64,000 nucleotides of DNA. Source: Octopus vulgaris (Eukaryota). Position 1 is the stretch's first letter, and the number at the start of each line of letters is the position of its first letter. Below the pieces are notes generated by a model that saw nothing but the letters and a program-made list of their open reading frames with translations, searched no databases and had not been told where the DNA came from. This document shows, piece by piece, positions 1,817-61,866 of this stretch. Location: NCBI GenBank assembly GCA_951406725.2, contig OX597815.1:68076001-68140000 (forward strand). Direction: 5' to 3'. The translations under genes and the position numbers were made by a program.

Positions 1817-2155
1817 CAATTGCAGCATGGAAGGTGTTTATAAGCCATTTAAGAAACTCACAAAAACCATTAGATTCACTTAAACATTTAAATTTAATTT
1901 GCCAAAATATTTTTGTCGCTTTGAGACCGCGACCTGCTCACTGGCAACATTCCGAGCACGGAATTTTGTTAGTGAACAGGTCATGGTCTCAAAGTGACAA
2001 AAATATTTTGGCAAATTAAATTTAAATGTTGAAGTGAATCTAATGGTTTTTGTGTGTTTCTTAAATGGCTTATAAACACCTTCCACGCTGCAACTGTTTT
2101 CATCCCAGCACACGATCTCAGATCAGGTCACTTGCTATGCAAGTACATCTCCGTA
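1817..2155. mobile_element. Fold-back repeat (Penelope-like inverted pseudo-LTR), family A, copy 1
   Basis: ~137-bp inverted arms (1817-1953 vs 1960-2097) plus a ~58-bp unpaired tail; second copy at 23543-23883. Confidence 0.8.
1899..1947 (-). ncRNA. Minimal hammerhead-like fold, G3-C8 variant (G12 decayed); mirror copy on + strand at 1965-2015
   Basis: TTGCCA-GTGAGCA-G-GTCGC-GGTCTCAAA-GCGAC-AAAA-ATAT-TT-TGGCAA: 6-bp stem I, 5-bp stem II, palindromic stem III. Confidence 0.55.
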
Positions 2156-3270
2156 ATACACACACTCACACACACAAATGGGTTTCCTTCAGTTTCTGTG
2201 GACCAAATCCACTCACAAGGCTTCGGTTCACCCAGGGCTATAGAAGAAGATATTGGTCCCAGGTCTCACACAGTGAGACTGAAACAGAAATCATGTGCTT
2301 GAGAAGCAAAATTAACCACACAGCCAAGAAGACAAAATAATTTTTTTTTTAAATCAACAGTTTAAAATATAAAATCCTCATAGTGATCTAACAAAAATCA
2401 TTTCCGGTTTTAACCTAGTAATGTCACCAAAAACACACGCAAAAACTTTAAGAGGAAGGAAAACAGGAATGAAAGAAAAAAAAGTTGAAGAAATTTCAGG
2501 AAGTGAAATCCAAAACAGGAAAATCACATAAAGACCAAACATAAGACATGACAAAATACAATATTTCACAGAAAACTGGAAAAAGAAAAGATTTCAACAA
2601 ATGTATCAGAATGCTTAGAGAAATTTTGAGGAAGGAAGAAGCTATGTTCACTATCATCATCATGAAGAATAATGTTTTTTTTAGTTTTGCTGTTAAGAAA
2701 ATATCAAAATACTAACAGTCACAGCAAGTTCACATATAAACAACAAAAATCAAAACTGGAAACCAAACTAAAAATGTTTTAAATAAAAACTTACATAAAT
2801 TAACATTGCCTAAGAAACAGTATTTCGTTTGCTAAACTAATTCTGAACTTTGGTTAAAGTTTGATAATGAAAAAAAAAAAAGGGATTAGCAAATGTTTTT
2901 ATAATGTAGCAAAAATGTTTATCAATTCTTTTTCATTGGTTTGCATTGAATTTTAAGCACAGGCATGGCTGAGTGGTTAAAAAGTTCATTTCCCAAGTGC
3001 ATGGTTTGAGGTTTAGCTCCACGACAAGGCACTTTGGATAAAGTGTCTGCTACTGCAGCCCATAAACAAAAGCTTCATAAACGGAAACTGAAAGAAGCTC
3101 CCCATATGCATATGAGTGTCTAAATGCTTTTAAATTTTTTTAAAGATCCGAATAATGCACGTTATAAGAAATAATACAAGCAGATGGTTTGTACTTTTAC
3201 CTTGTAAGCAATGTCTTCACTACGTGAAAGCATGTCCCAGTTTCTTGATATGTTTTCAAATGTTACACTA

Positions 3271-4160
3271 GGCGCAAGTGTGGCTGTGTGGTAAGAAGTT
3301 TGTTTCCCAACCTTCCAGATTCAGTCCCACTGCACAACATCTTAGGCAAGTATCTTCTACTTTAGCCTCAGGCTGACCAAAGACTTGTGAGTGGATATGA
3401 TAGACAGAAACTGAAGGAAGCCTGTCAAATACATCATCATTTAACATCCGCTTTCCATGCTGGCATGGTTGGATGGTTTGACTGAGGATTGACGAGCCAG
3501 ATGGCTGCACTAGGCTCCAATCTGATCTGGCAGAGTTTCTACAGCTGGATGCACTTCCTAACGCCAACCACTCTGAGAGTGTAATGGGTGCTTTTACGTG
3601 CCACCGGCATGAGAGCCAGTTAGGTGGTACTGGCAATGGCCACGCTCAAATGGTGTTTTTTATGTGCTACCTGCACAGGAGCCAGTCCAGCGCCACTGGC
3701 AACAACCTTGCTCAAATGTTTTTCACATGCCACCGGCACAAGTGCTAGTAAGGTGACGCTGGTAACGATCATGCTTGAATGGTGCTTTTGATGTGCCACT
3801 AGCACAGGACCCAGTCAGCAGCCCTGGCAATGATCACACCCGGATGGTGCTTTTAACGTTCCACCAGCACGGGTGCCAGTCATGCAGTGTTGTCATCGAC
3901 TTGCGGTGCTATATATATATATATATATATTTATCTATGTGTGTCTGTGTATTTGTATCTGTTCCCCCATCACCCCTTGACAATCGATGTTGGTGTGTTT
4001 AAATCCATGTAACTTAGTGGTTCAGCAAGAGACAGACAGACTAAGTACCAGGCTTAAAAATTGAAAAAGTACTGGGGTTGATTCATTCAACTAAAATTCT
4101 TCAAGGTAGTGTCCAAGTATGGCCTCAATCAGAGGAGTGAAACAAGGAAAACGTAAAATG
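3271..4160 (+). mobile_element. tRNA-derived SINE interrupted by an oppositely oriented retroposon-type repeat (3430-3900) with internal tandem subrepeats
   Basis: GGCGCAAGTGTGGCTGTGTGGTAAG head (A box) and B-box-like TTCAGTCCC; the insert matches copies at 23969-24385 and 61075-61445. Confidence 0.75.
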
Positions 4161-4459
4161 TATCTTTGTAAGCTAAAAGCTTGTTCTTACAGTGTCATTG
4201 GTTCCAAATTCTCCACATAACTATGTCTGGGTTGTTTGTGGTTCAACAGACCAGGAGATTATTACCTCAGTTGGAAACAAGGAACAGGTAGGAGTTGGCA
4301 ACAGGAAATACATCAAACTGTAGAAAAACCCTGCCTCAAAACACTCATCTAATCTATGTAAGTGTGTTGAAGTAGATTGTTAAAACAAAGATGATGATAA
4401 ATAAATTCTCCTGTAAATAGACTTCAAATCAGTGAGTACAGGTAAACCAAGCAGCATTC

Positions 4460-4666
4460 TAATCCCTTTAGCATTCAGATTATTGTCTAATGTAAAGCAT
4501 TTTTATTCACATTGTTTTGTATTAATCATTATCTTGCAGCTTTAAGATTTTGATATGTTTGTTTGACATAGTGAGTTAGGTGTGAGAGGCCACATATAGC
4601 CAGTTTGAAGATAAATAAGTAGAATATTTGGGCCGGAATTGGCTAGTTTAAATGCTAAAGAGTTAA
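4460..4666. mobile_element. piggyBac-like MITE (related copies ~5202-5430 and ~25950-26165)
   Basis: Termini TAATCCCTTTAGCATT...AATGCTAAAGAGTTAA, TTAA-type ends. Confidence 0.6.
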
Positions 4667-7013: not shown

Positions 7014-9839
7014 TGTTTTCTGTTGATAAGAGAATGTGCAGGAAGAACTAGATAAATAGATAAAATGAATAAATGAATGCTAAATCAGATACCAGGTGTT
7101 TTTATAATCTATATTTCTTTAATTCAATAATGTGAGAGTGTGGCTATACATATCTTGGTTGACACTAGTCAATCCATCTTCATTATCAGAATTGGTTCCA
7201 CAATGACATTTATACAAATTACAAGACATTCTATCAACATTACTGGGCAGAAATCTTATCAATATGGATGACTCAGTTTACCTGGGTATATGTCAATTAT
7301 ATTCAACAGATAATAATAATGAGTTAGATTTTTTTTTTATTCTAGTTCATAGCTCATTAAAAATAAATGCTAACAAAAAAGTATACTTAATTAAATAAAC
7401 AAAAAATAGCTGGGAATTCTTTAGAATTTGGTGTGAAAAATCGATTTTTATTAAAAAAAATATCCATTAGAGAGAACAGAATTTTCGTCAACAGATTAAT
7501 TATTCAAAGTTTATTAGTAAACAGCTGTTTGTAATATTCATTGTAACAAGAAATAACCCAACTAACAAGACAAACTGAAATGGAGTAGGAGACTTCATGA
7601 AACTTAAAGTTTATTTTTAATGAGAGTCTTATGAGAGAAGTGGAAACAACAAGATTGATTCATTTATAGCAGAAAACACTTGCCCAAGAAACCATTCTGT
7701 GCAACTGAACCCAAGAACAGGATTAAAAAATGAACTTCTTAGCAACACAGCTATACACACACACACACATCATTATTGTTTTCAAGCATCCTTTTCCATG
7801 CTTGCTATGCATCAGGCAGAATCTTTTGTGGAATCTCTTGTGGCAGATTTCTTCTTTTTTTTTTTTTACAACGAGAATCCCTTCCTGTCACCAACCCTCA
7901 TCTGTTCCCAATTAAGGTAATAATTTTACATGACCACTTAGGTTTTCACAGAAGATTGGAAACAAATGATGCATTTAAAACTATCACACAATGTTACAGC
8001 AAGGGAACACTAACACACAATGAGCTTCTTTCAGTTTCCATCTACTAAATCCACTCACAAGGCTTAGGTCAGCTCAGAGCTATAATAGAAGATACCTGCC
8101 CAAGATGCCATGCAGAGGGACAGAATCCAAAACCAAGCAGCTGGAAAACAAGCTTCTTATGAATACAGCCATGCCTACAGACATACACATGTGTGTGCAT
8201 GAATTTGTGCAAGCGTGTATGTATGTGTGTGTGCATGCACGCGCAATGATGCAAGTCAAGGACTGGATTTCAGAGTCATTTCCAGAGTTGCTCTTTAACC
8301 TTTTCCAAAGATTCTTGAAAAAAACCTGAGCCAAATGCTTGCAACAGGTAGTGATGTCAGATTATTCAACAGATTAATTCTACCAACCAGAGTAGGATTG
8401 AAGACAAAGAGCTAGAAACAATTACCAGAAAACATCCAGTCTGATGCTCTTACACTTGTATCATTCCTCCACCTTTAAGTGGTACTTGTTCTATCATCCA
8501 TGAAAAGTTGCCTTCAGCAGGATTTGAACCCAGAACACAGAGTCAGATGAACTATACTGAAAAATGGTAGGATCATCCACTAATAATAGCATGGGGAAAA
8601 ATCACACCAAATCTAAAGAAACAAGAAATTCTTTCAAAGAATTTAAAATAGGTTTTTCAATACCATACTAATGATATTTTAATTTTTAAATAATATATTC
8701 TAATGTAATCTTTATCATATCATTTTCAGTAATTGTGCTTTGTGTCTGCATTTGTCCCCCAATACTGCTTCACAATGGGTGTTGGTTTATTTACGGCCCC
8801 ATAACTTAGCAGTTTGGCAACAGACACCAATAGAACAAGTACCAGGCACAAAAAAATATGTACGGGGGCTGATTCATTTAACTAAAATTCTTCAAGGTGG
8901 TGTCCCAGTTTGGTTGCAATCTAGTGACCGAAACATATAAAAGTTAAGAGATAAAGATAATTTCAAGTTTCAAGTTATGTCATGGTGAAGAGTCCATAAG
9001 GAGGATGAATTAGCACTATGCACAACTACCAACAATTCAATAACTTTATCTCATGGAAATAAATTAAAAAGATTATATGAAAAGATATGTATGCTCTTCA
9101 CTGTTTAATGTAATTATAAATTCCTCAACAAGCTTAAAGCTAAAAGCAATTCTCTCCTCTTCAGTAGCAACCACAGAAGTCAACCAAAGACAGCATATTT
9201 CATTCAAAATATGGTATCAAAAGGGTTAAAGTGATTTGAATTTAAAATTTTTATCAAAATTTCATCTTATTTTATGTTCCAAACACCAGCTTAATAATGA
9301 CAAAGTTATACTAAATCATTATTTTCAAAATTAATCGAAACCAAAGCAGTGTTATTTCAACAGAAATAAAACAAAAGCATAAAGTTTTCAGAATCTTAGT
9401 TACTTGTGCTAGTTTACATAAAGAGTACTTTAAGGACTAATAAATCCAAGCAGAATACATTCTTTCTAAATTAGACCATTGGTTAATTAGAACATCAGTT
9501 AATTGGGACAAAATCTGAATGAAGATGGATATTTACAAAGATTCACTCTATTGAGTTCAGTAGACAGTAAACTATTAAAGACTCAATAAGAAAACTTCTA
9601 TAAAATCACCTGACAATACTAGAAATAGCAGCCCAAATCCCTCAAAATCACACCAAGAAAACAATGGCCAATATAATCCTAGACATTCAGACAGGATGAT
9701 CACAACTGATATACATTTGAATGTAGGTTTACTCAGTCACCACTTAACCCTTTTGATACAAGCCCACCTGAGACAGTCCCTGATTCTAAGATACAAACTT
9801 CTTGTTTTTAAGCTATCTAAATTAAAACCAATCAAAATT

Positions 9840-20045: not shown

Positions 20046-20211
20046 GCTTCTGAAAATGGAGAGACTTTTGGATCTTCAGATGTTTGAACATCAGATTCAG
20101 AATCTACAAACAATTTTATAAGCTAAAAATTGATAATGGGTAGAGGATTTACACCTGTTGTACTTTTTTTATGTAAAAATATTTCATTGGTTAATAGTTA
20201 TCGCCAAGCTA

Positions 20212-20490
20212 ATATAGCAGTCCAGAAAGATAGGACAAATGCTGCTGTTGATTAGCTCCAAGAGGCCATCGCCTCTGGCAAGCTATGTGACACACAAGCC
20301 TGTGTCCATTACAACCTTTGAACTGGGGAGGTCAGCCGCTTTCCCAGGCTGGTCAGGCATCTGCAGACTAGTTTCAAGGTATTTGCCCCTTATCAATGCA
20401 GAGCAGGCGTCGCTACTGACCATCTGTTCGAAGGATTATTTACCTAAATTCAGTGGAATACATCCACTGGTTTTCAAAAATAGAAATATT
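20212..20490 (-). mobile_element. GC-richer repeat carrying a minimal hammerhead (probable Penelope-like pLTR remnant)
   Basis: Composition contrast with flanks plus the embedded hammerhead fold; boundaries approximate. Confidence 0.5.
20361..20401 (-). ncRNA. Minimal type I hammerhead ribozyme, U3-A8 variant
   Basis: CTGCA-TTGATAA-GGGG-CAAATA-CCTT-GAAAC-TA-GTC-TGCAG: 5-bp stem I, stem II, GAAA, palindromic ACTAGT stem III, GUC cleavage triplet. Confidence 0.75.
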
Positions 20491-20667
20491 ATTATTTCTA
20501 TATCATTGGTATTTGCAGTTAGTAGATGGGTAAGTTGTTGGCCTGCTGAGCTCACATAAAATAGAGGTTTTTGATTCCTCAAGCAAAGCACATTATTTTA
20601 CATCGTTCCAGTCTACTTTTATTCTGTAGAGTAATCCAAGGATGAAATGTAAAGTTGACCCTGACGG

Positions 20668-20810
20668 AATTTGAACTCAGAATGTAAAGTTTTGTATGTA
20701 AGTCTTGTATTTTATATGTATTTTGTATGTAAATTTGAACTCAGAATGTAAAGTTTTGTATGTAAGTCTTGTATTTTATATGTATTTTGTATGTAAAGTC
20801 TTGTATTTTA
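20668..20810. repeat. Local 64-bp tandem duplication
   Basis: ATTTGAACTCAGAATGTAAAGTTTTGTATGTAAGTCTTGTATTTTATATG repeated twice. Confidence 0.85.
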
Positions 20811-21809: not shown

Positions 21810-22416
21810 TATATAATAATATTAGGGAATAAATTATTATTCCAACCTTACAGGTAAGATTCACTATAATAATATTAGACCGAATTTCGTTATATATAAT
21901 ATATAATATATGTATATAACTAATTTAGAGACGAACCACCATTTCACAACTCAGTCAATGAAGAACCCGTCCAAAACCATGCTGTGAAACATATAACATA
22001 CAAAATACTAATCTAAAATTTAAATAATATATAATATTGAACAGTAAGATTATTACAATGATATAATATATAAGAGCAAATACTTGTAAAATCACAGCGA
22101 ATAACATATGAAGAAACATCCATCATAAAAATATTAATCTAAAATCAAATAAAGTATATTTTGTACAATAAAAATGAATGCAATAATATAATGTATAAAA
22201 GTAAGTACTTGTACATTGACTACATGCATTTCATGGCTGAATTATGACTATATAAAATCATACAGCTATGCACCAGTGATGTCGCAACTCATTTCTACAG
22301 AATAGTGAACTGGAGCAATATGAAATAAAGTGTCTTGCTCAAGAACACAACACATAGCTAGCCCATGCCAGCATGGAAAATAGATGTTAATGATAATGAT
22401 GATGATGATGATGATG

Positions 22417-22470
<54 letters not shown>

Positions 22471-22474
22471 GTGT

Positions 22475-22815
22475 GAAGGCGCATGGCTCAGTGGTTAGAG
22501 CGTCGAGCTTACGATCGTGAGGTTGTGAGCTCGAATCCCAGACCGGGCTGCGTGTTGTGTTCTTGAGCAAGGCACTTTATTTCACGTTGCTCCAGTTCAC
22601 TCAGCTGTAGAAATGAGTTGCGACGTCACTGGTGCCAAGCTGTATCGACCTTTGTCTTTCCCTTGGATAACACTGGTGTCGTGGAGAGGGGAGGCCGGTA
22701 TGCATGGGCGACTGCTGGTCTTCCATAAACAACCTTGCCCAGACTTGTGTCTAGGAGGGTAACTTTCTAGGTGCAATCCCATGGTCATTCATGACCGAAG
22801 GGGGTCTTTACCCTT

Positions 22816-22817: not shown

Positions 22818-22868
<51 letters not shown>

Positions 22869-22869
<1 letters not shown>

Positions 22870-23518
22870 TAAAATTAAGGATAAAATCTTTATAAGAAAT
22901 TATCAGTAGTTAGCGTGAAAAACCTCATAAGAGAAAAAATCCGTAAATTTTTCCACTTTGAAAATATTTATTTATATTATATAGAGGGTACTATTATTCA
23001 TAGGTACCCTCTATATAATATAAATAAATATTTTCAAAGTGGAAAAATTTACAGATTTTTTCTCTTACGAGGTTTTTCACGCTAACTACTGATAATTTCT
23101 TATAAAGATTTTATCCTTAATTTTAAATTTATATTTTTCACCGGAATAGTTCAATACTGAATTTTTGTTCCGACTAGGCAATTTGTTACCGAAATGCATT
23201 GCGAATAAGCCCGCCATTTTCATAGATATGTAAAGATAAACATTCGTACATGCTGCGGCAAATTCTACGGTTGGCTGTCGGGTTTGTAATGTTGTGTTTT
23301 TTCTTATATGTCTTGAGTTTGTTGCACTGATGAGCATAGAATGCATATTCTGCATTGATTGCAAAATCACAGGTGATATGTAACTAAATTCTGCTTTTAA
23401 ATTACTTGCTTTGAAGTTTTGCATTCGGTACAATTTGTTTATTTTAGTAGTTTTGACTGCAAGAGTCCCTCCTAGCGTGCGGTACCTATGAATAATAGTA
23501 CCCTCTATATAATATATA
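22869..23518. mobile_element. Penelope-like non-autonomous element: inverted arm plus direct terminal repeat
   Basis: Near-perfect ~120-bp inverted arms (22869-22991 vs 23004-23126); loop sequence reappears reverse-complemented at 23481-23516. Confidence 0.7.
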
Positions 23519-23542
23519 TATATATGTATGTATATATATATT

Positions 23543-23882
23543 ATGGAGATGTACGTGCATAACAAGTGACCTGATCTAAGATCTTGTGCTGAAACAAAAA
23601 CAATTGCAGCATGGAAGGTGTTTATAAGCCATTTAAAAACACACAAAAGCTGTTAGATTCATTTTGACATTTAAATTTAATTTTTCGAAATGCTTTCATT
23701 GTTTTGAAACCACGACCTGTACACTGACAAAATTCCATAATGCAGCATAGTATTTTTCAGTGAACAGGTCGCAGTTTCAAAGTGGCAAAAATTTTTCAAC
23801 AAATTGAATTTAAATGTTGAAATGAATCTAACGGTTTTGTGTACTTTTAAATAGCTTATAAACACCTTCTATGCTGGAATTG

Positions 23883-23883
<1 letters not shown>
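23543..23883. mobile_element. Fold-back family A, copy 2 (opposite orientation)
   Basis: Homologous to 1817-2155; left arm retains GAAA in the hammerhead-like fold. Confidence 0.8.
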
Positions 23884-23941
<58 letters not shown>

Positions 23942-26756: not shown

Positions 26757-29700
26757 TACGAGATTTAGTCAAAAAGTATCCTACCTTGATTTTTTTTTTG
26801 CACAAAATAATGTGTGAACAAAATCCACATGAGCATTAGGTGGCCGCATCCTTCCTGAGCATACACAAAAATTTCTGTTTCTGTAGGTTGCATCATTCAC
26901 CTGCCGTGATGCATTGAGTACAGATGTGAAGAGTGTACTATGTTATTTATTTTTTTTGTCAAGATGACCGAGCACATTGAGCTGTATCAAATTCAGCCAA
27001 AACCTTGGTGATACGCAAGCCCAGACTATCAAGAAGATTCAAGAGGCCTTTGGAGATGACGCTATGGGAAAAACACAAATAAAGGAGTGGTATAATCAGT
27101 TCAAAGATGACCGCACCTCAGAGGATAGTGAGCCACGTTGTGGCAGACCATTGACTAGCAGAAATGAAAAAATTATTGCAAAGGTTCGAGGTAAAGTCTA
27201 TGGAGACTGTTGTGTGACTATTGAGGAGATTATTGGAGGAAGTTGGAATCAGCCATGGGTCAGTTCAATCAATTATAACAGGAGATTTGTGCATGAGGTG
27301 GATGTCAGCCAAATTCATAGAAAAGTTGTTGTCTGACTATGGAAAGAAAACAGAAAGGAAATCTCCCAGGACATGCTGGAGTATGCTATCCAAGATTAAA
27401 ACTTCATGAACACTATCATCACTGGCAAGGAAACATGGGTGTATGGTTATGACCCTGAAACAAAATTGCAATCATCCCAATGGAAGCATTCATCCTCGCC
27501 AAAACCAAAGAAAGCAATGTTAAATGATGATGAACTGGTTTTTTTTTACTTTAGAGGTATTGTGCACCATGAATATGCATGTTGTAATGAGAGTTACAGT
27601 GTCCCCTTGCAAGAGATAGACTGGTCAAAGTAAAGTATGAATAGTAACAATCCAAGTGAGTTTGAGGGTTCAGAGTCAAGTGAAGTTTATGTTAGTTCAC
27701 AGAGAAATCAGAAGGTGTCAGTTGATTAGTTCTCAAGGAATATTGATTGTTGGTTAGAATTATTCTATTTATAGGATCTTCCATAAATTTCTATTGCAAA
27801 AACATAAATGATTGTCCCTCTAAAAATATTTTGTCTGGAGAGTTGAAGTGAAATTTTTTTTAAATATTTCCGCAGGTACTCTCAGACAAACTATGCACAA
27901 AGACTGAAGCATGTTTTTAATTAAATGATAACATTACACCTGTGTTCAAGCCTAATAGGAGAGTGCTTTTTGCTGCAATAAAGTAAGTGGACAATGAGTT
28001 GGACAGATTGGAAAAAAACGGAATCATTGAAAAAGCAGATTACACAAAATAGGCAAAAATTAGGTTGTGTGCAAATTTTTCATCTTGTTTAAATGACTAT
28101 TTAAAAATGAACCATTATCCACTACCAATCGCAGAAGATATTTTTACAAAACTAAACAGAGGAAAAATATTCTCAAAACTCAATCTGTCTGATGCATATC
28201 TGCAAATCAATGTAGGTAAAAAAAATGCTCAAAGCTGTTAGTGGTCAACATGTACAGGAGCTATACAAATACAATAGCCTAACTTTTGGACTGAAGATAG
28301 CACCTGCCATATTTCAACAGGTGATGGATGCAATGTTGGCAGACTGTCAATTTGTTATTCCTTACCATGACATGTTAATCAAAAGCTAATCATGGAATGA
28401 GCATATTGAACACGTGAAGTGTGTCTTTAAAAAAATTAAGGATTATGGTTTCACACTCGGTGAAGAGAAGTGTGAATTCTTTTGCCTAAAATCAAATACC
28501 TAGGTCAAATCATAGATAAGAAAGGAAGACGTCCTGACCTGTCAAGGGTAGACGTAATCAAGAATTCTCCAATGAACATACCAACATTGCAAGCTTTCCT
28601 TGGCCTAGTAAATTACTATCGACAGTACATTCCAAATAAATATAAATTGCGAGCACCATTAAACGATTTACTAAAAAAAAAGAAGTAAAATGGAATTGGT
28701 CAGTAAAGTGCCAAAATGCACTTGAAGACATAAAGAAAATACTAATTTTTGACTTGTCACTAGCGCATTTCCATCCTAGAATGGACATTGTTGTTGCATC
28801 TGATGCTTTGGAGTATGGAATAGTAGCAGTCTTGCTACACAAGTATAAAGATGGAAATATGAAGCCAGAAGTTCATGCTTCACATTCACTGATAGCAGTG
28901 GGAAAAAAAGTATTGTCAGATAGAGAAGGAGGCTCTATCGATTATTTTTGCTGTAAAAAAATTTCACAAATTTCTACATGGTAGAAGCTTTTTGTTACAA
29001 ACTGACCACCGGTCATTACAATCAATCTTTGGATCAAAGAAGGGATTGCCTACCCATACAGCGAACCAACTACAACACTGGGGTACTATATTGCTGAACT
29101 ACAATTTTAAGATACAGTATATTCCATTGAAGAAAATTAGTCATGGAGACTGCTTATTAAGGCTAATTCCCAAGAGCGTGGAACCACTAGAAGAGACTGG
29201 TAGTGTCGTAGCAGTCAGAAAATGAAATTGTGTGTAATATAATCCAGGAATTGCTGGTGACAGCACAAGATATAAAAATTAAAGTTGTTGAGGATAGTTA
29301 CATTACAAGAATGAAAGAAACATTGAAAAATAGGCATAATAAAAGTACAAATTCAAATAATTTCTCACTATGCGATGGTGTCATAATGTATACGCAAACT
29401 GTAGTAGTACCAAGTGCATTACAAAAACGAGTATTGCAACAATTCCACTGTGGGCACCCAGGAATGTCCAGAATGAAAGCTTTAGTGAGGAGCTTCGTAT
29501 ATTGACCAACCTGTACAGGGACATGAAGAAATTAGTAAAAGCATGTAGAGGTTGCATGTTGGCAACCAAAGTACCACCAGTAAAATACCAACCGTGGCCA
29601 GATACTGAGAGCCCATGGTCCAGGATACCTATCAACTACGCTGGACCATTAAATGGCGCATACTATATAATCATTGTGGATAACTGTACAAAGTGGCCAA

Positions 29701-31106
29701 AGGTATGCAGATGTAATAAACCCACAGCAAAGACAATAAAGTTCTTATTCAAGTTATTTGCTCGATATGGTATTCCAGACACATTAGTTTCAGATAGTGG
29801 AACACAATTCACGGGATATAAACTAAGAAATTTCTAAAAAATACATGTCATAAAGCACATCTTTACTTCACCCTACAACCCAATGTCAAATGGGCGGGTG
29901 GAAAGATTTGTCAACATGTTCAAAAGAGCTCTAAGAAAAGCTAGGAATGAGCTAGATAATGACAAGGCAGTAACAAAATTTTGGAGAGTATATAGGATAA
30001 TGCCAAATCCAAATACTAATTCAGGAAAGTCACCAGCAAAGCTAATGTTTGCGTGTAAAATAAAATCGCCCTTCGATAGATTATTGCTAGGAAAAAATAC
30101 ATATAAGGGAAAGACAAAAAAATACATTTGAAGGAAATACAAAAAATATTACAAAACATTTCAAAGTAAGGGAGAAAGTTCATTTTAAAAAATGCAAAAA
30201 TGGTAAAGAAAGTTGTGAGGATGGCTGTGCAATTAAAAAATTAGGTAACATAATGTATTTAATTACAGGAAAATATTTGGAACATAATAGACTCTTTAAC
30301 CAGCTAAAGATGAGACATACAGAAGAACGAAGGGTAATACCAATGGAAGTCTTCTATGATATGTTTGAAGTGCCAGCCCAAGAGATATTGAACCTCATAG
30401 AACTAGCTTCAGAAAACGAAAATAGACAAAAATTTCTGTAATACCTAAATGAAAAAGATATTAAATTTTCAAAAACAAAAAGAGTGCTAACAAGAGTGCT
30501 TAGTACAACGAAAGGAAAAAGTGTTGCATGCAATGAACAATACAACCTTAAAAGTTGGGCAACAATTAAGATACACCAGTGAAAAAAAGAGGGTGAGGTG
30601 CTGGAAAGATAAAGAGGAAAAATAAAAGAAATTCCACTTTCTCACAGTAGTCAAAATCTCGAAAGGGGAGATGTTGTAATGCCTCCTTGCAAGAAACAGA
30701 CTGGTCCAAGTAAAGTATAAACAGTAATGATCTGAATGAGTTCGAGAGTTCAGAGTCAATTAATATTCACTGTTCGAATGAATAGCCATATTCGTGTCCA
30801 ATGTCATTTCCATGTTAACTGGGTTTGATTGATTCTCAACTCCCTCCTCTTGGTCAATCCTACTCCCCAGACTTGACCCCATGTGACTTTTGGCTATTCC
30901 CAATGCTCAAAAAAACACCCAAAGGGAGAAATTCACCAGTACATCTCTACAGCATCCCAAAAAGAGATTTCCAGAAATGTTTCCAGCAGTGGTAGGAACG
31001 CTGGCAGAAGGTGAATACTTTGAAGGAAACTAAATCAAAATAGTGAGTTTTCTAATATTACTTGTTTTTTGGCCAAAGGTCAGATACAATTTGACTACAA
31101 CTCATA
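26757..31106 (+). mobile_element. Mariner element split by a Gypsy insertion
   Basis: TA-flanked TIRs TACGAGATTTAGTCAAAAAGTATC / GATACAATTTGACTACAACTCATA; CIKFSQNLG, IITGKETWVYGYDPETK before the insert; YSPDLTPCDFWLF (~30860) after it. Confidence 0.9.
27580..30840 (+). mobile_element. Ty3/Gypsy LTR retrotransposon remnant (K02A2.6/Mag-like pol pseudogene; gag/protease not evident)
   Basis: Homologous LTR starts TGTTGTAATG..CCTTGCAAG at 27580 and 30672, PPT GAAAGGGGAGA at 30661; RT (IFSKLNLSDAYLQI), RNase H (VVASDALEYGI), integrase (HCGHPGMSRMK, LVSDSGTQF, SNGRVERF). Confidence 0.93.
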
Positions 31107-39830: not shown

Positions 39831-41171
39831 CAGGGGTTGGACAAAATAATGGAAACACCTAGCATCATAGCATCATAATTTTGAAATATCCATAAAACCA
39901 TCAAAAGCTTATTTATTTTATGTTTTTTTTATTTATTACTAGTGTTGTTTAATATGTTTTTTCTAAAATTGCTGTTTCTTTTCAGATATCATTAGAAAAA
40001 GGTAATTAAAATTCATTAAAATGACACATCTATTGGACTTTCAAAGAAGTCAAATTGTTGGTGCTTGTATAGCAGGCACAAGCGTAATGAAAACAGCTGA
40101 AATGTTTGGTGTATCAAGAAGTACTGTCTCAAAAGTAATGACAGCCTTTGAGAAAGAGGGAAGAACCTCCTCATCAAAACAAAACTCCGGAAGAAAACCA
40201 AAACTCTCAGATAGGGACCGTCAGATTCTTACATGAATTCTTAGAAAGGATCACAAAAGTGCAGCTCTCAAAATTACTGCAGAGCTTAATGACCAACTTG
40301 GGAACCTACTTTTCACAAAAACTGTTCACTGGGAGCTACACAAAGCTGGATTTCATGAGAGGGCTACAATCAGAAAACCAGAACTTTCAAAAACAAACAT
40401 TACAAAGAGTTTAGAATGGAGTAAAGACCTACAGAATTGGTCCCTAGAGCAGTGAAAGAATGTTATTTTCTCAGACGTGTCATCCCTTACCTTATTTCCA
40501 ACCACCAGCTGAGTAGTCGGAAATACATTCCTAGATGTAGCCCCCCACCCAGATCATCACAGATCCTCCTCCATGTTTAGCAGTTAGAAGAAGGCAGTCT
40601 GGGTCAGATGCTTCTTTGGCTGTCTTCTAACTGTTAAACATAGAGGAGGATCTGTGATGATCTGGTGGGGCTACATCTTGGAAATTCACAGACCCAATGG
40701 TTTCCCTTTATAGCAGAATTAATAGTCAAGACTAATTAATAGTCAAGCATTTTATCTGATCAACTCCATCCTATAGTTGCAGAACTGTTTCCAGAAGGAA
40801 ACACAATCTTTCAGGATGATAATGCACCAATTCACACAACTAAAGTTGTTACTGAATGGCACGAGGAACATTCTAGTGAAGTTGAACATCTTATCTGGCC
40901 ACCACAGTCCCCAGATCTCAATATCATCGAACATTTATGGTGCATTTTATATAAACAAGTAAGGAGTATCCTCCACCATCATCACTACAAGAACTGAAGA
41001 CTGTTTTATCTGAAGAATAGACAAAAATTCCTTTGGAAACAATTCAAACTTTGTACAAGTCCATACCTAGTAGAATTCAAGCTGTAATTACTGCCAAAGG
41101 CAGTCCTACCCCATATCAAAATAAATTTGTTTGAAATTTTAAGGTGTTTCCATTATTTTGTTCAACCCCTG
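39831..41171 (+). mobile_element. Tc1 (DD34E) transposon, decayed, with internal inversion
   Basis: TA-flanked 30-bp TIRs CAGGGGTTGGACAAAATAATGGAAACACCT; paired-like HTH (FGVSRSTVSKV, SGRKPKLS), VIFSD, FQDDNAPIH, WPPQSPDLNIIEHLW. Confidence 0.95.
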
Positions 41172-43014: not shown

Positions 43015-46000
43015 AATACATATATATAAAGAATACATATATATGGCTTTTATTTTTATCTTTTATCTTTCACTTGCTTCAGGCATTAGACTGTGGCCAT
43101 TCTGGGGCACCACCTTGAAGAAATTTTAGTCAACTGTATCCACCTTAGTACTTTTTTTTCAAGCCTGGTACTTATTCTATCATTTTTTTTTTGCTGAAGT
43201 GCTAAGTTACAGGGACATAAACACACCAACACCAGTTGTCAAGCTGTGGTGGGGGACAGACACACACACACATATAAGAAGCCCATTGTATATGTATATA
43301 TGTATATATATATATATACACAATGGGTTTCTTTCAGTTTCCATCTACCAAATTCACTCACAAGGCTTTGATCTGCCCAATGCTATAGTAGAAAACATTT
43401 GCCTAAGTTACCACACAGTGGGACTGAACCAGAACTGGGTGGTTGGTAAGCAAGCTTCTTACCACACCCACACATTTACAAAAGGGTTTTTTTTTTTTCA
43501 GTTTCTCCAAACCAAATTTATCCAGAAGGCTTTGGTCAGCCTGAGACCATAGCAGAAGACACTTGCCTGAGATGTTGCACATTGGAACTGAACCTGAAAC
43601 AACCTAGTTAGGAATTGGGAAGCAAACATCCTAACCATACACAGGTATGCCAATATTTTACAAATTAATGAAAACTACTTCTTTTACAGTGCAGTTTACA
43701 GGATGTAACAGACATATTTGTATTCTCACAAGATGAGTACAAAGGGATCTTCTCTAGACAAAACAATTTTGTAATTATTTTCAATTCCCAGAAGGAACTA
43801 TTCCATTTCACTTCATTTCTAGCACTGTTGCCCTCGAGGAAAGAGTAAATGCCTTAATTCCCATTCCTTTTTTTAAGTATTGTGTTTCGGTAATAAATTT
43901 CTCACAGACAACGAAAGCAGATGAAAAAGAAAGAATAAGACACTAATAGTGATTATGTTTCAGGTAACACACACACACACACATTCTTTTATTTTATTAC
44001 CTTTTGTAGTTGTTTCAGGCATTTGACTGCAGCTGTATTGAAGCACCACCTTGAAAGGTTTAGTTGACTGAATCAATCCCAGTGCTTTATTTTGTGTCTG
44101 GTGCTTATTCTATCAGTCTCTTTTCGTTGAGGTGCTAAGTTACTGGGATGTATACAAACTAACACTGGTTGTTGAGTGGTGAGAACAAACAAACATAAGG
44201 GTGCATCCACAGATACACACACACACACATATACATGCACTTTCATACATATATACATACACATGTATGAATATTATGGATTTCAAAGTTTGGCACAAGG
44301 CTGGTAATTTCAGGAGAGGGGTTATGTTAATCACGTTAACCCCAAAAGGATCAAAAGTAAAGTAGACCTCAGCGGAATTTGAACTCAGAATGTACAGACA
44401 GACGAAATGCCGCTAAGCATTTAACCCAGCATGCTCATGACTTTGCCAGCTCACCACCTTGTGTATGTATATTATTGTTGTCATCTTCTAATGTCTGTCT
44501 TCTGTACTAGTATGGATTGGATAGACAGAATTCCACAGGTGTCATACTCCAATGCCTACATGGTAGACATTGGAACATTGGAGTATTCTATGACTGAATA
44601 CCTTTCCTAATGTTAACAACTTTACAGAGAATGCAGGTTGCTTTGCTTTTTTTCATGATACTAGCACTAATGAGGCTGCCAAGTAACTTACAAGAAAAAT
44701 TAAAGGTAGAAGAAGCCTCCTCTACTGAGAAGGTTGTAGGGGAAGGGGTTTATGCCAGATGTTGAGAGGTTGAAGTATGATCGAGGTACTGGTGTCTTGT
44801 TATAGCAAAGATGCATGGCTACTACACAATTTATAGGCATGGGTGGGAATGAATACATATCTCTGGTTTAACATCCACTTTACCATGCTTGCATGTAAAG
44901 GATAATGACAACCTTCAGTCATGAACGGTCATGGGATTGCACCTAGAAAGTTACCCTCAGAAGCACAAACACAGGCAAGGTTGTTTATAGAAGACTAGTA
45001 GCTGCACATGCATACCAGCCTCCCTTCTCCATACCACTGATGTTATCCAAGGGAAAGGCAAACTCCAATACAGCTTGGCACCAGTGACATCACAACTCAT
45101 TTCTGCAGATGAGTGAACTGGAGCAACGAGAAATAAAGTGTCTTGCTTATGAACTCAATGCACAGCCAGGTTTGAATATTGAACTCACTACCTCATGATT
45201 GTGAGCCCAATGTTCTAACCACTGATCATGCACCTATCAGATAGACATCTCACTAAGGGGCACAAGAACTTTTACACATCACATATACTCACAGCAGGCT
45301 TTAGTTTCAACCTACTAAATTCACTCACAAGGCTTTGGTTGACCATGTGTATCTTTGTACCAGTGTTTATTACCTATCGCCACCATCACCACCACCACTT
45401 GACAACCTGTGTTGGTTGGTTTGCATCCCCATAACTTAGTAGTTTGGTAATAGAGGTGAATAGAATAATTACCAGACTTAAAAAGGTAAAAAAAAAAGTA
45501 AGTACTGGGTCTGATTTGTTCAACTAAAACCTTTCAAGATGGTGCCCCATTTTTAGATTAATATTATGTTTCTGTTGTGAAATGTTTACGTATACTATCA
45601 TGTTTTAATCTAATTATTATCATGAATAAATATTGGTTTCGAATTTTGGTGTAAGGCTAATAGTTTCTGGAGGAAGGACTAAGTTGGTTACATTGACTCC
45701 AGTGCTCAACTGGTACTTATTTTATTGACCCTGAAAGGAGAAAGGCAAAGTCAAGCTTGGTGGAATTTGAATTCAGATTGTAAAAACAGAAGAAAGCATT
45801 TTGTCCAGCATGCTAACCATCTTATCATAAATAATATTAAAATAAAGTGAGTATTTTAAAGCAAATTTATGAATAACAATAACAAAATATTTATTGATGG
45901 TAAGACTTAATACTAAAAATAGAGTAAATTTTATAAAATTTGTTTTGATTGGGACTTTGGAGTTTCATCTGAGGATTTATTCAACTAGTCTCTTTGAATA

Positions 46001-48997: not shown

Positions 48998-49404
48998 CTT
49001 GGAAATGAATGCATCGCATTATATTAAATAATAAATAATATATAATATATATATATGCTGAAACTCCCTTCGATCATGACAGACCATTGGATTGCACCTA
49101 GAAAGTTACTGTCCCAGGCACAAGTCCAGGCAAAGTTGTTTATGGAAGACCAGCAGTCACCCATGCATACCAGCCTCCCCTCTCCATGCCACCAGTATTA
49201 TCCAAGGGAAAGGAAAAGGCCGATACAGCTTGGAACCTGTGACGTCACAACTCATTTCTACAGCTGAGTGAACTGGAACAATATGAAATAAAGTGTCTTG
49301 CTCAAGAACACAACACAAAGCCCGGTCAGGGATTTGAACTCACAACCTCACAATAGTAAGCTCGACACTCTAACCACTGAGCCATGTGCCTTCACAATAT
49401 ATAT

Positions 49405-50735
49405 ATACAGGCATGTATGGGTACAGGACATCACCAACAGTGCAAATAACATGAAATACGTAAACAAACAAGGGAAAACCAATTGAAATACGTAAACAAC
49501 AAGAAAAATGGAAAACATGACAAGTTAACACAGAGAAAGGACCCTTCACCAGTTGTCGGCTGTCTATCTACTCCTCATTTCAAGCATTCAACAATATGAG
49601 TCTTCAAAGACAGTTGCTCCCATAAATTCTAAAATAAAATTTAGGATTTATGAAGGGTCAAAGTTGGGAACAAAAAAATGACAGTGCAGACATATAAGGA
49701 AACTAAACAAAAACAAACATGGGGGGTTGTTAGACCAGAATGAAAGGAAAATAGTGAACACTAGGAGAAATATTTTTTTGATAAGAGAAAAGATAGAAGA
49801 GAGAGAAAAACACGTCCACTCACTTAAACGTCCATACAGGAAAAGAAAGATGGTCGTGTGAGAAAAAGAAAAATGGATGATGGTCGTATGAGAGCAACGA
49901 GGGAGAGAGAAAAAAGAAAAAGAGGGGAGAGAGAAAGAGGCAATTAGAAAATGGTGAAGGAGGGAGGGGGAGAAAAAGGGAATTAGAAAAGGATGGAGGA
50001 AGAAAACAGTATAGTGTAGAGAGTAGCATCAGAAAGGGGAAGATGAACTTACTTGGAAATGGATGCATCGCATTCAGTGACAGTTTTCTTCCTCCATCCT
50101 TCTCTAATTCCCTATTTCTCCCCCTCTCTCCTTCACCGTTTTCTATCTGTCATTCTCTCCCCTCTCTCCTTCACCGTTTTCTATCTTCATTCTCTCCCCC
50201 TCTCTTTTTCTTTTTCTCTCTCTCTTGATCTTTCTTTGCTCACATGTGACCATCATCCATCGTTCTTTTCCTCATGTGACCATCTTTCCTTTCCTGCATG
50301 GATGTTTAAATGAGTGGACATGTTTTTCTCTCACTTCTATCTTTTTTCTTTTCAAAAAATTGTTTCTCCTAGCATTCACTATTTTCCTCTCATTCTGGTC
50401 CAACAACCTTCCATGATAGTTTTCCTTTGATTTCCTTGTATGTCTCCACTGTCGTTTTTTTGTTCCCAACTTTGACCCTCCATAAGTCCTAAATTTTATT
50501 TTAGAATTTATGGGAGCAACTGTCTTTGAAGACTCATATTGTCATTGAATATTTGAAATGAGGAGTAGCTAGACAGCTAACAACTGATAAAGAGTCCTTT
50601 CTCTGTGTTAAGTTGTCCTGTTTTCCATTTTTTCTCGTTGTTTATGTACTTCACTCATTTTCCCTCATTTGTTTATGCATTTCATGTTATTTACACCGTT
50701 GGTGACGTCCTGTACCCATATATGCAAGTATATAT
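49405..50735. mobile_element. Large fold-back element (~600-bp inverted arms), Penelope-like architecture
   Basis: 49405-50008 is the diverged reverse complement of 50082-50735; ~73-bp spacer. Confidence 0.85.
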
Positions 50736-53237: not shown

Positions 53238-54835
53238 GCTTGGCTTTTGCTTTGTATTTGTTCAAGTGGACTCCGAGTCTCACTGAGAGACCTCAAGAGA
53301 CAACAAGTTAGAGATTCAAGTTGGTTTTATGACTAGCATGCCATATATTTGGTTTTGTACAGAGTATTGTTCTAGAGAATGTCTGTCAAAATATAAGTAA
53401 ATTAGAAGATTGTTTTAAAAGTAATTTGATTATAGTCTGATGTTAAGATGACAATAAAAAGTGCTTGCTGTTATGTACATTTAAAAGTATTTTGACACTG
53501 TTTACAGATTGAAATATTTTGAGGATTACATAGACAATATTTGTTCCCATGAGCATTATTTTTTGTTCCCATGAGCACTATTTTTTAAATTTCTTCCATT
53601 TTTGGATTTCCTGGTATCTGAGCCAGGTAGCAATCAGCCCCTTTTGCTATCATTCCTTGGGCACCTATGACAACAGGTATTGTTTTAGTTTTCAAGTTCC
53701 ACACTTTGCCAATATTTATTCCAAGATCTTTATTGAACTTGCTCAGTTTTAGGTGTGTCTTGACAGATACATTTATGTCAATTGGGACAGTTATATTGAT
53801 GAGGAGGCATGATTTTTGTCTGAAATCCTTCAATATAATGTCTAACCTATTAGCATCTATCTTTCTATTAGTTTGAATGGTGAAGTTCCAAAGGAGTGAG
53901 ATGTGATCATTTTCAAGCACTGGAGGTGGTTTGTGTTCCCAACAGTTTTTATCATGGGGCAGGTCCAAGTCTTTGCAAATTACCCAGTGAATATACTGTG
54001 TTGCTCTATCATGCCTGTTGAGATACTGACTGTACATGGAGACAACATGATCAGTGGTTTTATTTTGTTATTTACATACAGGACATATTGGGCTATTGCT
54101 ATTCTTTAAGATGTTGGCCTGGTAGTTTCTTGTAGGTAGGCATTGATCTTGGGCTGCTATGATGGATCCTTTTGTTTCTGATTTTAAGCCAGAAGATACT
54201 AGCCATTAATGGGTAAGGGCTTTGTCAACATTAGCATTATTAGCTCTCTTTGGGTATTTGCCATTGAAAGGTTTTTCTTGCCATTTATCAGTAAGAATAT
54301 CAAAGCAGCAGTTTTAGCAAGGGTTTTCATATACTTAGCTTTTTCTGTGCTTGTTTCCAGAATGTCTAATTCTGGGATTTGTTGTATTTAGAATTCACTT
54401 AGATATTTCTTAGTTTGTTTTGTTACTAAGTATGATGCTTTCTTGTTTTCATGCTTTAAGATAATTTTTAACATACAGTCATCAGAGTTTTTCAAGTAGG
54501 TGTTTAGGCTAATTGTGGCAATCTTCACTGTTAATTACAGTTGTAAAAGTCCATGGCCACTCTCCTTTCTTGGCAGGTAAAGTCGTTCTATATCTGCCTT
54601 AGGGTGGTACAATGTATCTGTCAAGACACACCTAAAACAATTTTCATATCTTTCTCCCAAGATTACAGATTTCAGTAATTGACCTGTTAATGATATTGAA
54701 ACTGTAAGTCACAACCGGTATGGTTAAAGTATTGATCATTTCAATTCTGTTTCTTGCATTCAGCTCTGTCTTGAGTATTGCCCTTACCCTGCGATAACAT
54801 TTTTTCTGATCTTTACTTTTCTTTCTTTATTTCTC
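53236..54835 (-). mobile_element. R4/Dong-like 3' portion (zinc knuckle + restriction-like endonuclease + 3' UTR)
   Basis: YLNRHDRATQYIHW, LLWNFTIQTNRKIDANRLDIIL, LLINITVP; ends in the (TAA)n array. Confidence 0.85.
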
Positions 54836-55462: not shown

Positions 55463-56313
55463 ATAGTTTTATTTTTATAGCATGCTTTCACTTCACTACC
55501 GAGTACAGCTCTGTGTGCCTTGGGTATGTGCTGTGATTTTTTGTGATGCTCTGATGGTTACTGTATTGAAAGTGTTTTGTGTAGGATGTGTGCAGTGCCC
55601 AGTAGTGCAATTTTCTGTATGTTATATATATTTGTAAGTCTGAATACTTTTTTTATCATACCTAATGCAGCTATTATGATAAGAATTGTTTCTGTTTTTA
55701 GATTCCACATTCAAGTTACTTCTATTTCCAGGTCTCTGTATTTTGAAAGTTTCTCCATTTCTTTTAGAGACACGTTGTCATCTGCTGGTATTGATACATC
55801 AATTAGAAAGCATTTTTTTCCTTCATGGTCTCTGACAACTATATCTGGCCTATTGGCCTTAATTTCTCTATCTGTGTGTATTGGCATATCCCAGAGTATG
55901 CTTGCTTTCTCGTTTTCTGTGACCTTTTCTGGTGTGTGCCTATACCATCTTTTTTCTGTTGTTATTCCATAGTGCTGGTATAGCTTCCAGTGTATGTAGG
56001 TCCCAACTCTGTCGTGTCTGTGAATATATTCCTTCTTAGCCAGGACTGGGTAGCCAGAGATAATATGATTTATTGTTTCTTGTCCATCTCCACATATTCT
56101 GCAGTTACTTATATGTTTTAGGTAATTTCTGGTGAGGACACTTTGGTCTTGTGCTGCAATTAAAAATCCCTCCGTCTCTGCTTTGAGTCCTGAGCTTCTC
56201 AACTATTGCAGGGATTTTTCTCTGTCTATTTCTCTTGCATTTAGTTTAGTCCAGTATTTGCCATGAAGGGGCTTTTCTTGCCATCGTTTTATCATGGTCC
56301 TTTGCTGTTCTAG

Positions 56314-59246: not shown

Positions 59247-59592
59247 CGTGATTTTCATCTGGGGTCCATCTGACCCTTTGGTGTCCATATGACCCTTCAG
59301 GATCCATATAAGATTTTTGGGGGCCCATGTAAGCAAAATAGTAAATTGTGGACCTACAGTATTTTATTAAGTATCTATGTAAACATTTTGTTTTGGATGT
59401 ATTATTGCAACAAACAGCAAGATTTCTTTCTCTAACATTTTACATGGTTGACCCTACACAAGTTAATGTGTGATAAAAAAAATAGAAATTTTGAAAGAAG
59501 TATCTATAAAAGTAGTCTTTAAACATTGAATGGCTATGGGAGTCCACCAAAGTAAAGTAGTAATCTAAAGACCCATAGGTTGAAAACCACTG
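59247..59592. mobile_element. hAT-like MITE, decayed
   Basis: GTGATTTTCATCT ... AGGTTGAAAACCACTG termini, subterminal GGGTCCAT repeats. Confidence 0.65.
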
Positions 59593-60612
59593 ATATAAAA
59601 TCTCCTTTCCTAACTCAATTAGATTGCAGTTGGGAAGAGAGAGGGAATAAAAGACAGAAGAAAGAAAAATCTAGGATGAGGTTGTTAGACTGTATTCTAG
59701 AAATATTAAGTGCTGGGATGTCTATGTGGTTAAGAAGCTCATTTGCAATCACATGGATTCATGTTGAAACACACTGCACCACACCTGGGGCAAATGTCTT
59801 CCTCTATAGCCTTGGGTCAATCAATGCATTGTGAGAAAATTTGCTTGATGGAAACTGTGATGGAAACTGTGATGGAAACTGTGTGGAAGCCCATCATATG
59901 AGTGTATGTGTGTCTTTGTGCTTGTGTTTATTCCCTTCATCACTTGACAGCTTGTGTTGGTTTGTTTATGATCCCAAAACTCAGCAGTTTGGCAAAAGAG
60001 ACTGATAGAATAAATACAAGAATTAAAATATAAAGTACTGGTGCCAGTCGAATGAGTGAAACAAGTAAAAGATAAAACATATATGACAAAAGATAGAAGA
60101 CTGCAGATAAAAATGACCAAGAAAACAATAAGCTTCATGGAAAGAGCAATTATATAAACTCTGCAAGGCCACACCAGATTTAAGAAAGAAACATTAAATC
60201 AATAATGATATTTATAATATTATTATATCAACCAGCATGGTGCCAAACAGATAAGCAGAGTTAAATGTTAACAGTTTATAAAATGAATCTTGATCAGAAT
60301 CGAATTCTAAAAAAAATAACAAGTCATCGTCATTACCAACACAACTACGACAAACATCATTGTCGTTATTGTTGTCATCATAGTCATCATCAGCAGCACC
60401 ACCATCACTCACACCACTACCACCATCATCATTGTCCTTGACATTATCTTCATCATCATTACCATCATTTTAATGTCATCTTTTTCATACTTTCATCTTG
60501 AGCAAGCATCTTCTACTTGCTCAGGATACTGACCAAAGCCTTGTGATGGTTTTGGGAGACAGAAAATGAAAGAAGCCTATTGTGTGTGTGTGTGTGTGTG
60601 TGTGTGATATCA

Positions 60613-60994
60613 AACACACATATGCAAGATATGGGTATTGCCAGTTTGTGGGCAGGCTGTGATTTATAGGCATGAAAGAAAATTTTCTCATAAATACGCC
60701 AAGTGTAAAAACCCCTAGAAGTCATTGACAAGTGAGATAACTCATGCCCAGTTCATTGCAGGAGTGGTAGACATTAATGTTTTGTCATCTTTGTGGCATG
60801 GTATTGATAAATCACATAGATGATGAAATATTGATGTCTACCACTCCTGCAATGGTCCTGGCATGACTTATCTCACTTGTCAATGACTTCTAGGGGTTTT
60901 TATACTAGGTGTATTGAGGAGAAAATTTTCTCTCACACCTATAAATCACAGCCTGCCCACAAACTGGCAAAACACATAACCTTGTGTATGTGTT
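60613..60994. repeat. Fold-back repeat, ~185-bp arms
   Basis: TTGCCAGTTTGTGGGCAGGCTGTGATTTATAGG... mirrored by ...CCTATAAATCACAGCCTGCCCACAAACTGGCAA; short loop near 60798-60813. Confidence 0.9.
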
Positions 60995-61582
60995 ATCGAT
61001 GTTGCTTTGTATTCCTTGGGCTGCTTCTCATTCATATTTGAAAGTGTATATATATATATATATATATATATAGCTGTGATACCAGTGCCGGTGGCACGTA
61101 AGAGAACCATCCGAACGTGGCCATAGCCAGCGCCGCCCTGACTGGCCTCCATGCCGGTGGCACGTAAAAAGTACCATCCGATTCATGGCCGTTGCCAGCT
61201 TCGTCTGGTCTCCATGCCAGTGGCATGTAAAAAGCACCATCCGATCGTGGCCATTTGCCAGCCTCGTCTGGCACATAAAAAGCACCCACTACACTCACGG
61301 AGTGGTTGGCGTTAGGAAGGGCATCCAGCTGTAGAAACACTGCCAGATCAGACTGGGCCTGGTGCAGCCTTCTGGCTTCCCAGACCCCAGCTGAACTGTC
61401 CAACCCATGCTAGCATGGAAAGCGGACGTTAAACGATGATGATGATAAGAGGTAATGGTGTCATTGAGACCCAAAGGTGTCAGGTAATGCTGAATAAGTG
61501 CTATAGACAGACCATAGTTAAGTTCCAGGTTCAGTAATTTTGTGAATAAGGGGTTCAACATTGGTCATATGTCAGTGTGTGC

Positions 61583-61866
61583 ATATAAGAATTTTTTGCA
61601 TAATGAGATAAAAAACCAAGGCTGTGTAGATATTAGAACATTTATAGATAGAAGGTCTTACAGCTGTTTCCAGGATATTTATTAATTATATCCCTTTATA
61701 AGAGACACCGTCAACCTCTCACACCGTCAACCTCTCACACTGTCTCCGATGAAGGGATATAATTAATAAATATTCTGGAAACAGCTGTAAGACCTTCTAT
61801 CTATAAATGTTCAAACATCTACATAGCCTTGGTTTTTTTATCTCATTACGCAAAAAATTCTTACAT
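61583..61866. mobile_element. Fold-back Penelope-like pLTR with a hammerhead fold in each arm
   Basis: ~125-bp inverted arms; spacer has 2 x ACACCGTCAACCTCTC. Confidence 0.85.
61742..61793 (+). ncRNA. Minimal type I hammerhead ribozyme (U4C); degenerate mirror copy on - strand at 61655-61706
   Basis: GTCT-CCGATGA-A-GGGATAT-loop-ATATTCT-G-GAAAC-AGCT-GTA-AGAC; palindromic ACAGCTGT stem III. Confidence 0.72.

Follow-up and report, generated by a model that had tools for sequence, protein, structure and literature searches.

Do repeats in the octopus genome carry hammerhead ribozymes whose core pair between positions 3 and 8 is swapped, such that a search for CUGANGA would miss them? The question is raised by a 64-kb stretch of Octopus vulgaris DNA (GenBank assembly GCA_951406725.2, contig OX597815.1, positions 68,076,001 to 68,140,000 of the forward strand), called here the window, whose first letter is position 1. 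From its letters, an original prediction had placed minimal hammerheads with three different 3:8 pairs (C-G, U-A, and G-C) in several non-coding, Penelope-like repeats. The cores lie where it had put them: CCGATGA at 61746 on the plus strand (element D), TTGATAA at 20396-20390 on the minus strand (element B), GTGAACA at 1972 (+) and GTGAGCA at 1941 (-), and a further pair at 23.7 kb, these last four all belonging to a repeat that we call family A. The main finding concerns family A, a high-copy non-coding repeat with a G3-C8 layout that a CUGANGA search would pass over; going by its sequence, it is a natural minimal hammerhead layout, probably derived from a Penelope-like element. The G-C pair of family A stands, as does the U-A pair of B, which recurs in an additional element, F, while the C-G pair of D is the ordinary one. 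The earlier observation is partly confirmed and the interpretation built on it partly supported.

The 3:8 pair of family A

Family A is an abundant non-coding repeat of about 215 bases. Its two copies in the window, A1 and A2, are 81% alike and have the following parts:

1816..2158: copy A1, with fold-back arms 1816-1954 and 1959-2097, 92% complementary
2098-2158: one-sided tail of A1, 61 bp
1965..2015, plus strand: hammerhead layout in the A1 right arm, core GTGAACA at 1972-1978 (G3, C8)
1965-1971/2009-2015, plus strand: stem I of the A1 right arm
1980-1984/1994-1998, plus strand: stem II of the A1 right arm, preceded by an extra G at 1979
1999-2002, plus strand: positions 12-15.1 of the A1 right arm; position 12 is A in A1 and G in most of the family
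2002-2007, plus strand: palindrome of the A1 right arm, with U17 at 2008 and the predicted cut 3' of 2008
1899..1947, minus strand: hammerhead layout in the A1 left arm, core GTGAGCA from 1941, G12>A
23539..23885: copy A2, fold-back 23600-23885, tail 23539-23599, (TA)n on both sides
23760 (plus) and 23724 (minus): A2 cores GTGAACA and GTGTACA, more decayed than in A1

A1 itself is flanked by (TA)n on the left and (CA)n on the right. The 3:8 pair is G-C in all four arms, which together pair at 19 of 20 cells in stem II and 22 of 28 in stem I, and the predicted minimum free energy (MFE) structure of the A1 left arm includes both stems. Each arm also has one core lesion, and no copy in the window is intact. 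Three arms have AAAA in place of GAAA, and the fourth, the A2 minus arm, keeps GAAA but has A6>T; the expectation that every repeat folds around GAAA holds, taken literally, only at 20.4 kb and 61.7 kb. At the 11.1/12 dinucleotide, three arms read CA and one reads TG. Both are what CpG decay leaves behind, and from this we predicted an ancestral G12 before the read data were examined. CpG decay likewise accounts for a G-C to A-T difference between the stems II of the two A1 arms, which looked like covariation and which we rejected as such.

The original prediction had further proposed covariation of the 3:8 pair among copies and selection upon it. No such covariation was seen, G3-C8 being constant in the four arms, and the cores are no better conserved between arms (60/66 positions, 0.909) than the rest of the repeat (424/472, 0.898). 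Selection, if any, would therefore have acted on founders and not on inserted copies; the intact pairing across families allows it to be proposed for founder lineages only, with the qualification that the descriptor used to find the hammerheads itself favours a paired 3:8.

Family A sequence was present in runs of five organism labels from 13 studies (20 of the 24 run rows listed carry it), with no RNA run recorded among the runs listed as carriers. We aligned four public runs, three of DNA (as contigs) and one of RNA (X22, as reads), to positions 1945-2170 at a likeness of at least 80%, which placed 12,845, 14,560, and 7,290 contigs and 1,714 RNA reads on one family A arm. At position 12 (1999), G accounts for 83.8, 93.7, and 89.8% of the contig depth in the three DNA runs and for 412 of the 571 RNA reads (72.2%). 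Among the 40 differences listed of 102, six within 1965-2015 have shares no lower than 38% in every DNA run (1970 C, 1983 G, 1984 C, 1995 C, 1999 G, and 2011 A, the last at only 38-52% of depth), and each restores either a Watson-Crick pair or G12, giving a stem I of 7 bp and a stem II of 5 bp. These restoring changes, together with the majority letter G12 (72-94%), indicate that AAAA in the window copies reflects decay of those copies.

The majority form of family A accordingly has a 7-bp stem I, the core GUGAACA, an extra G, a 5-bp stem II closed by G10.1-C11.1, GAAA, the palindrome AAUAUU, and U17. It contains the invariant core U4, G5, A6, A9, G12, A13, A14, A15.1, U16.1, and H17, with GUGAACA in place of the canonical C3-G8 core, CUGANGA. 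The four runs have no tallied G>C change, and X12 has no C>G change either; X1, X2, and X22 have 1-2 C>G changes each whose position was not placed. The tally is taken to cover all 102 differences, and neither 1972 nor 1977 appears among the 40 listed. With no G>C in any run, G3-C8 looks family-wide.

Run X22 differs from DNA in other respects. Its reads have A>G differences at 22 places and T>C differences at 29, where a DNA run with that organism label has 5 and 4; the total of C>T and G>A places goes up only from 17 to 29. The excess fits A-to-I editing of double-stranded RNA formed by the fold-backs, the compared DNA coming from another individual or individuals. Minority variants in X22, namely A at position 17 (74/703), A as the extra base (65/383), and an inserted T after 1980 (38/398), perhaps mark a single expressed locus or subfamily. 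Motif scans for family A returned 0 matches in viral contigs and 0 in prokaryote genomes.

Origin of family A and predicted activity of its ribozyme

We consider it likely that family A, a minimal type I hammerhead layout with G3-C8, is a non-autonomous Penelope-like piece (a solo pseudo-long terminal repeat, pseudo-LTR), and we predict that its founder RNA would cleave itself slowly in dimeric form. In each window copy one arm is short and the other is longer by the same 61 bp, and the arms end at matching places. The 3' ends of family A contigs in run X1 fall at 2093 (95 contigs) and at 2156-2158 (85-99 each), with (TA)n beyond 2158. The joints at which the strand switches vary (1955 to 2029, 2068, or 2111; 2016 to 2107; 2044 to 2097), each backed by 1-2 contigs per run. 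An inverted adjacent copy, a one-sided tail, and a microsatellite target occur together in A1, A2, and F; published Penelope-like insertions have an adjacent 5' copy in inverted orientation, a tail confined to one end, and targets of (TA)n (PMC8557442), and in one Penelope-like element the one-sided tail is tied to two reverse-transcription starts (PMC11167929). Depth on the arm climbs from 5' to 3', as 5' truncation would produce, although divergence of the reference copy is a confounder. Family A also shows, or nearly shows, all four features of the published minimal hammerheads that one family can display and that had not been searched for: an extra base after A9, G10.1-C11.1, a palindromic loop 3, and a U-rich 5' flank (Cervera and de la Pena 2014, PMC4209133).

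Under this reading, the reverse transcriptase and endonuclease of a helper element would copy family A, two reverse-transcription start sites would yield two 3' ends about 60 bp apart, and the fold-backs would arise when a second copy is attached in inverted orientation at the 5' end, after which inserted copies would decay neutrally, mostly at CpG. Two RNAs may pair through the AAUAUU palindrome to form helix III and cut 3' of U17, probably with the help of protein. A transcript spanning a whole fold-back would instead form one long hairpin that hides the ribozyme: across the whole of A1, stems I and II have a predicted pairing probability of 0.0, so such copies would be unable to act. Minimal hammerheads are reported to cut weakly and only as dimers (PMC4209133), and the Anolis Penelope-like hammerhead requires protein, its C3G/G8C double mutant being partly active (PMC11167929). 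That family A is a working natural G3-C8 hammerhead, whose founder crossed a gap of two transversions with nearly inactive single steps, retained all its remaining core bases, and then spread to high copy in several species, is a tentative proposal from sequence to which we give somewhat less than an even chance. RNA reads of run X22 fall on family A about equally in both directions. The idea that N17 is constrained not to pair with N3 was given up, because U17 is frequent in any case (24 of the 56 examples in Fig. S3 of PMC4209133).

Several observations weigh against a Penelope-like origin or against activity. No Penelope reverse transcriptase or GIY-YIG match was found in 150 of the 171 filtered open reading frames (ORFs) of the window (259 found). 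The 61-bp tail exceeds the published 30-40 bp, the inversion point lies within about 10 bp in both copies, as in a fixed palindromic DNA element, and the extra base is G where H is published (G in 1/56, PMC4209133). The AAUAUU self-duplex is very weak (-0.2 kcal/mol; -4.8 for B, -4.2 for F, and -11.1 for D), and the predicted MFE structure adds a G3-U17 wobble that may inhibit cleavage. Run X22 has no pile-up of starts or ends on family A, although its library type may not show one. Contig depth favours abundant words and does not measure copy number, with rare variants dropped, and the 80% threshold excludes more distant relatives, among which a C3-G8 form would be missed. Rfam gave no hammerhead among 145 matches in the window and none for the local pieces (0/8 and 0/1); minimal hammerhead forms simply escape it.

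The weak helix III and the G3-U17 wobble could also mean that family A descends from a Penelope-like hammerhead but that its G3-C8 form is dead or nearly so, the repeat having spread without cleavage. Family A copies decay neutrally, hammerhead mutants do not stop insertion by the Penelope-like protein in vitro and the C3G/G8C double mutant is only partly rescued (PMC11167929), Naiad elements spread without canonical hammerheads (PMC8557442), and a G3-C8 variant is reported, from data not shown there, to be more active with G17 than with C17 (PMC3884650). The majority sequence nevertheless keeps all other core bases and both stems, and the swap needs two matched transversions when G8C alone cuts the rate about 10^5-fold; drift without selection would more probably have damaged the stems, or another core base, before that. 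We regard a dead ribozyme as rather unlikely on balance. An origin as a DNA-transposon miniature inverted-repeat transposable element (MITE) or other palindromic element, with the hammerhead layout captured or accidental, is improbable. It would account for the long, near-perfect inverted arms, their similar centre in both copies, and the TA-rich flanks, and mariner and Tc1 pieces are present in the window. Yet the ends are asymmetric by 61 bp in both copies, the inversion joints vary, 185 RNA reads run 5' past 1955 into sequence matching nothing in the arm, and a zero-mismatch hit with stem I of at least 6 bp and stem II of at least 4 bp is expected only 0.003 times per shuffled 64-kb window. 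A1 and A2 thus lack symmetric terminal inverted repeats, and a target duplication is not discernible within the microsatellites; an early reading of family A as a plain MITE without GAAA was overturned by the family-level contigs and reads.

The original prediction had also spoken of retrozyme-like elements, and non-LTR retrozymes, tandem monomers that make circular RNAs, are the most improbable of the origins considered. The sizes of element B are of canonical type (helix I 6 bp, helix II 4 bp, no extra base), it has a possible outer stem within a GC-richer stretch of roughly 240 bp, and a preprint ties retrozymes to pseudo-LTRs (bioRxiv 10.64898/2026.07.22.740005). That stretch folds no better than its shuffles (z -0.60), however, and the window holds no head-to-tail repeat of A, B, D, or F: A, D, and F are inverted and B is solo, a layout that does not support the retrozyme-like interpretation.

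Elements B, F, and D and the rest of the window

The other hammerhead layouts in the window lie in three elements:

20360..20402, minus strand: element B, intact hammerhead layout, core TTGATAA (U3-A8) at 20396-20390
20360..20402, minus strand: parts of B, with stem I 6 bp, stem II 4 bp, GAAA, palindrome ACTAGT, and C17 at 20366
60616..61045: element F, fold-back 60616-60993, extended on one side by about 50 bp as far as (TA)n and flanked on the left by (TG)n
60799..60843, plus strand: hammerhead layout of F, core TTGATAA (U3-A8) at 60804-60810
60799..60843, plus strand: parts of F, with stem I 5 bp, stem II 4 bp, GAAA, a 10-nt palindrome, and C17 at 60838
61583..61866: element D, fold-back arms 61610-61707 and 61741-61838, 93%, with a microsatellite on the right
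61742..61793, plus strand: hammerhead layout of the D right arm, core CCGATGA at 61746 (C3-G8, U4>C)
61742..61793, plus strand: parts of the D right arm, with stem II 7 bp, GAAA, palindrome ACAGCTGT, and A17
61702, minus strand: core CTTATAA of the D partner arm

Element B is a single copy within a GC-richer stretch of about 20200-20445, and no inverted copy or one-sided tail was seen for it. Element F, absent from the original prediction, was found by permitting G-U in the helix III palindrome; this palindrome is perfect in the left arm, which lacks the core because the inversion begins inside stem II. As far as their sequence tells, B and F probably belong to the minimal Penelope-like hammerhead kind, with a U3-A8 core that is already published (PMC4209133, PMC3088659). 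Could this core instead be single-copy decay of an ordinary CUGAUGA? Each element has one copy, and both changes are transitions, but the elements are unrelated and yet have the identical TTGATAA, their cores are free of further lesions, neither change lies in a CpG, and UUGAUAA is a published family consensus in Schistosoma (PMC4209133). Such decay is therefore unlikely. A metagenome scan gave one match for B (L001, 122-160), with a TTGACAA core, a weak stem II, and unrelated flanks, near a rough chance estimate.

Element D holds two decayed hammerheads reading outward, and its tail has no clear boundary. CCGATGA is most simply a lesion of one arm, and the simplest ancestor of both cores is an ordinary CTGATGA, so that D is likely an ordinary C3-G8 member of the kind.

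How far such layouts could arise by chance was gauged from dinucleotide shuffles of the window, using a hammerhead descriptor scan that permitted any 3:8 pair and graded core mismatches and stem lengths in tiers. The tier of element B was matched in 3 of 912 shuffles, that of the A1 right arm in 9 of 912, and that of D in 21 of 912, with the qualification that the tiers were chosen after the hits were known. Three hits with at most one core mismatch, stem I of at least 6 bp, and stem II of at least 4 bp occurred in 0/912 shuffles, and two zero-mismatch hits like B and F in 0/1145. Hits at 8718, 32975, 35175, 41301, and 56945, with one mismatch or short stems, were dismissed as chance-level. 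Fold z-scores were weak for 8 short pieces (-1.82 to +0.41).

The window is AT-rich, repeat-rich, animal-type DNA (35.6% GC) whose short repeats have a cephalopod-like look. It holds microsatellites as well as broken mariner, Tc1, LTR-type, and non-LTR pieces. Its remaining features are the following:

806-1090, 26968-27333, 28646-30128, 40006-40994, 53588-54067, and 55714-56202: fragments of mariner, Tc1, and LTR-type (RNase H, integrase) elements by Pfam
20638-20691: 50-bp dispersed repeat with at least 9 more copies in the window, adjoining a 64-bp tandem duplication at 20668-20797
22260-22645: a repeat in inverted arms, broken up by a different short repeat; the first repeat is also present at 45053-45235 and 49208-49407
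22861-23134: fold-back, 97% perfect, whose centre reappears at about 23480-23510, beside the tail of copy A2
49560-50576: 1-kb fold-back (80-84%), with CTGATAA and CTGGTGA at matching places in its arms, like a bare half core

The frames at 53588-54067 and 55714-56202 we take to resemble the endonuclease end of an R4-type non-LTR element. Neither the fold-back at 22.9 kb nor the one at 49.6-50.6 kb matched the hammerhead descriptor, and in the arms of the latter no GAAA lies at a fitting distance from CTGATAA or CTGGTGA.

Relation to known hammerheads and significance

With the minimal type I hammerheads of metazoan Penelope-like pseudo-LTRs (PMC4209133), the window elements have in common a short helix I, GAAA, a palindromic helix III, and U17 or C17, as well as dispersal as solo units or as opposite-strand pairs 100-700 bp apart. 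The UUGAUAA core (U3-A8) of B and F is as published there. Family A differs in its longer helix I (7 bp) and in its 3:8 pair: the 56 examples in Fig. S3 of that paper comprise 53 with C3-G8, 2 with U3-A8, and 1 with U3-G8, and G3-C8 occurs in 0/56, a form that its descriptors did not seek. Natural 3:8 covariation was described by Perreault et al. 2011 (PMC3088659), in the parts of that paper covered, for U3-A8 and without G3-C8.

The same swapped pair is known from engineered C3G/G8C rescue mutants, including the Anolis Poseidon hammerhead (PMC11167929; review PMC8495972), where it is partly active in a Penelope-like context. Those mutants are lab-made, whereas family A, at high copy, has the swapped pair as its prevailing natural form. 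The literature searched yielded engineered G3-C8 hammerheads and no natural one, its coverage stopping short of Lunse et al. 2017, Przybilski and Hammann 2007, and supplement file 1 of PMC4209133. Non-LTR retrozymes (PMC7229834; bioRxiv 10.64898/2026.07.22.740005) are alike in being non-coding, in having a type I hammerhead, and in their tie to Penelope-like pseudo-LTRs, but they lie head-to-tail and give circular RNAs, unlike the inverted or solo elements of the window. Penelope-like insertions (PMC8557442) share the inverted adjacent copy, the tail at one end, and the microsatellite flanks, and differ in that the window elements have no ORF.

Family A reveals no new kind of system. Descriptor-based counts of hammerheads miss families of this sort, both because they require C3-G8 and because individual copies lose G12 to CpG decay. 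One clade of Penelope-like elements lacks hammerheads (PMC8557442) and insertion in vitro proceeds without cleavage (PMC11167929); a natural family fixed for the swapped pair offers a direct test of why these elements retain them. If family A works, it would be evidence for selection on self-cleavage in the Penelope-like life cycle, and whole genomic ribozyme families would be invisible to CUGANGA and UUGANAA searches.

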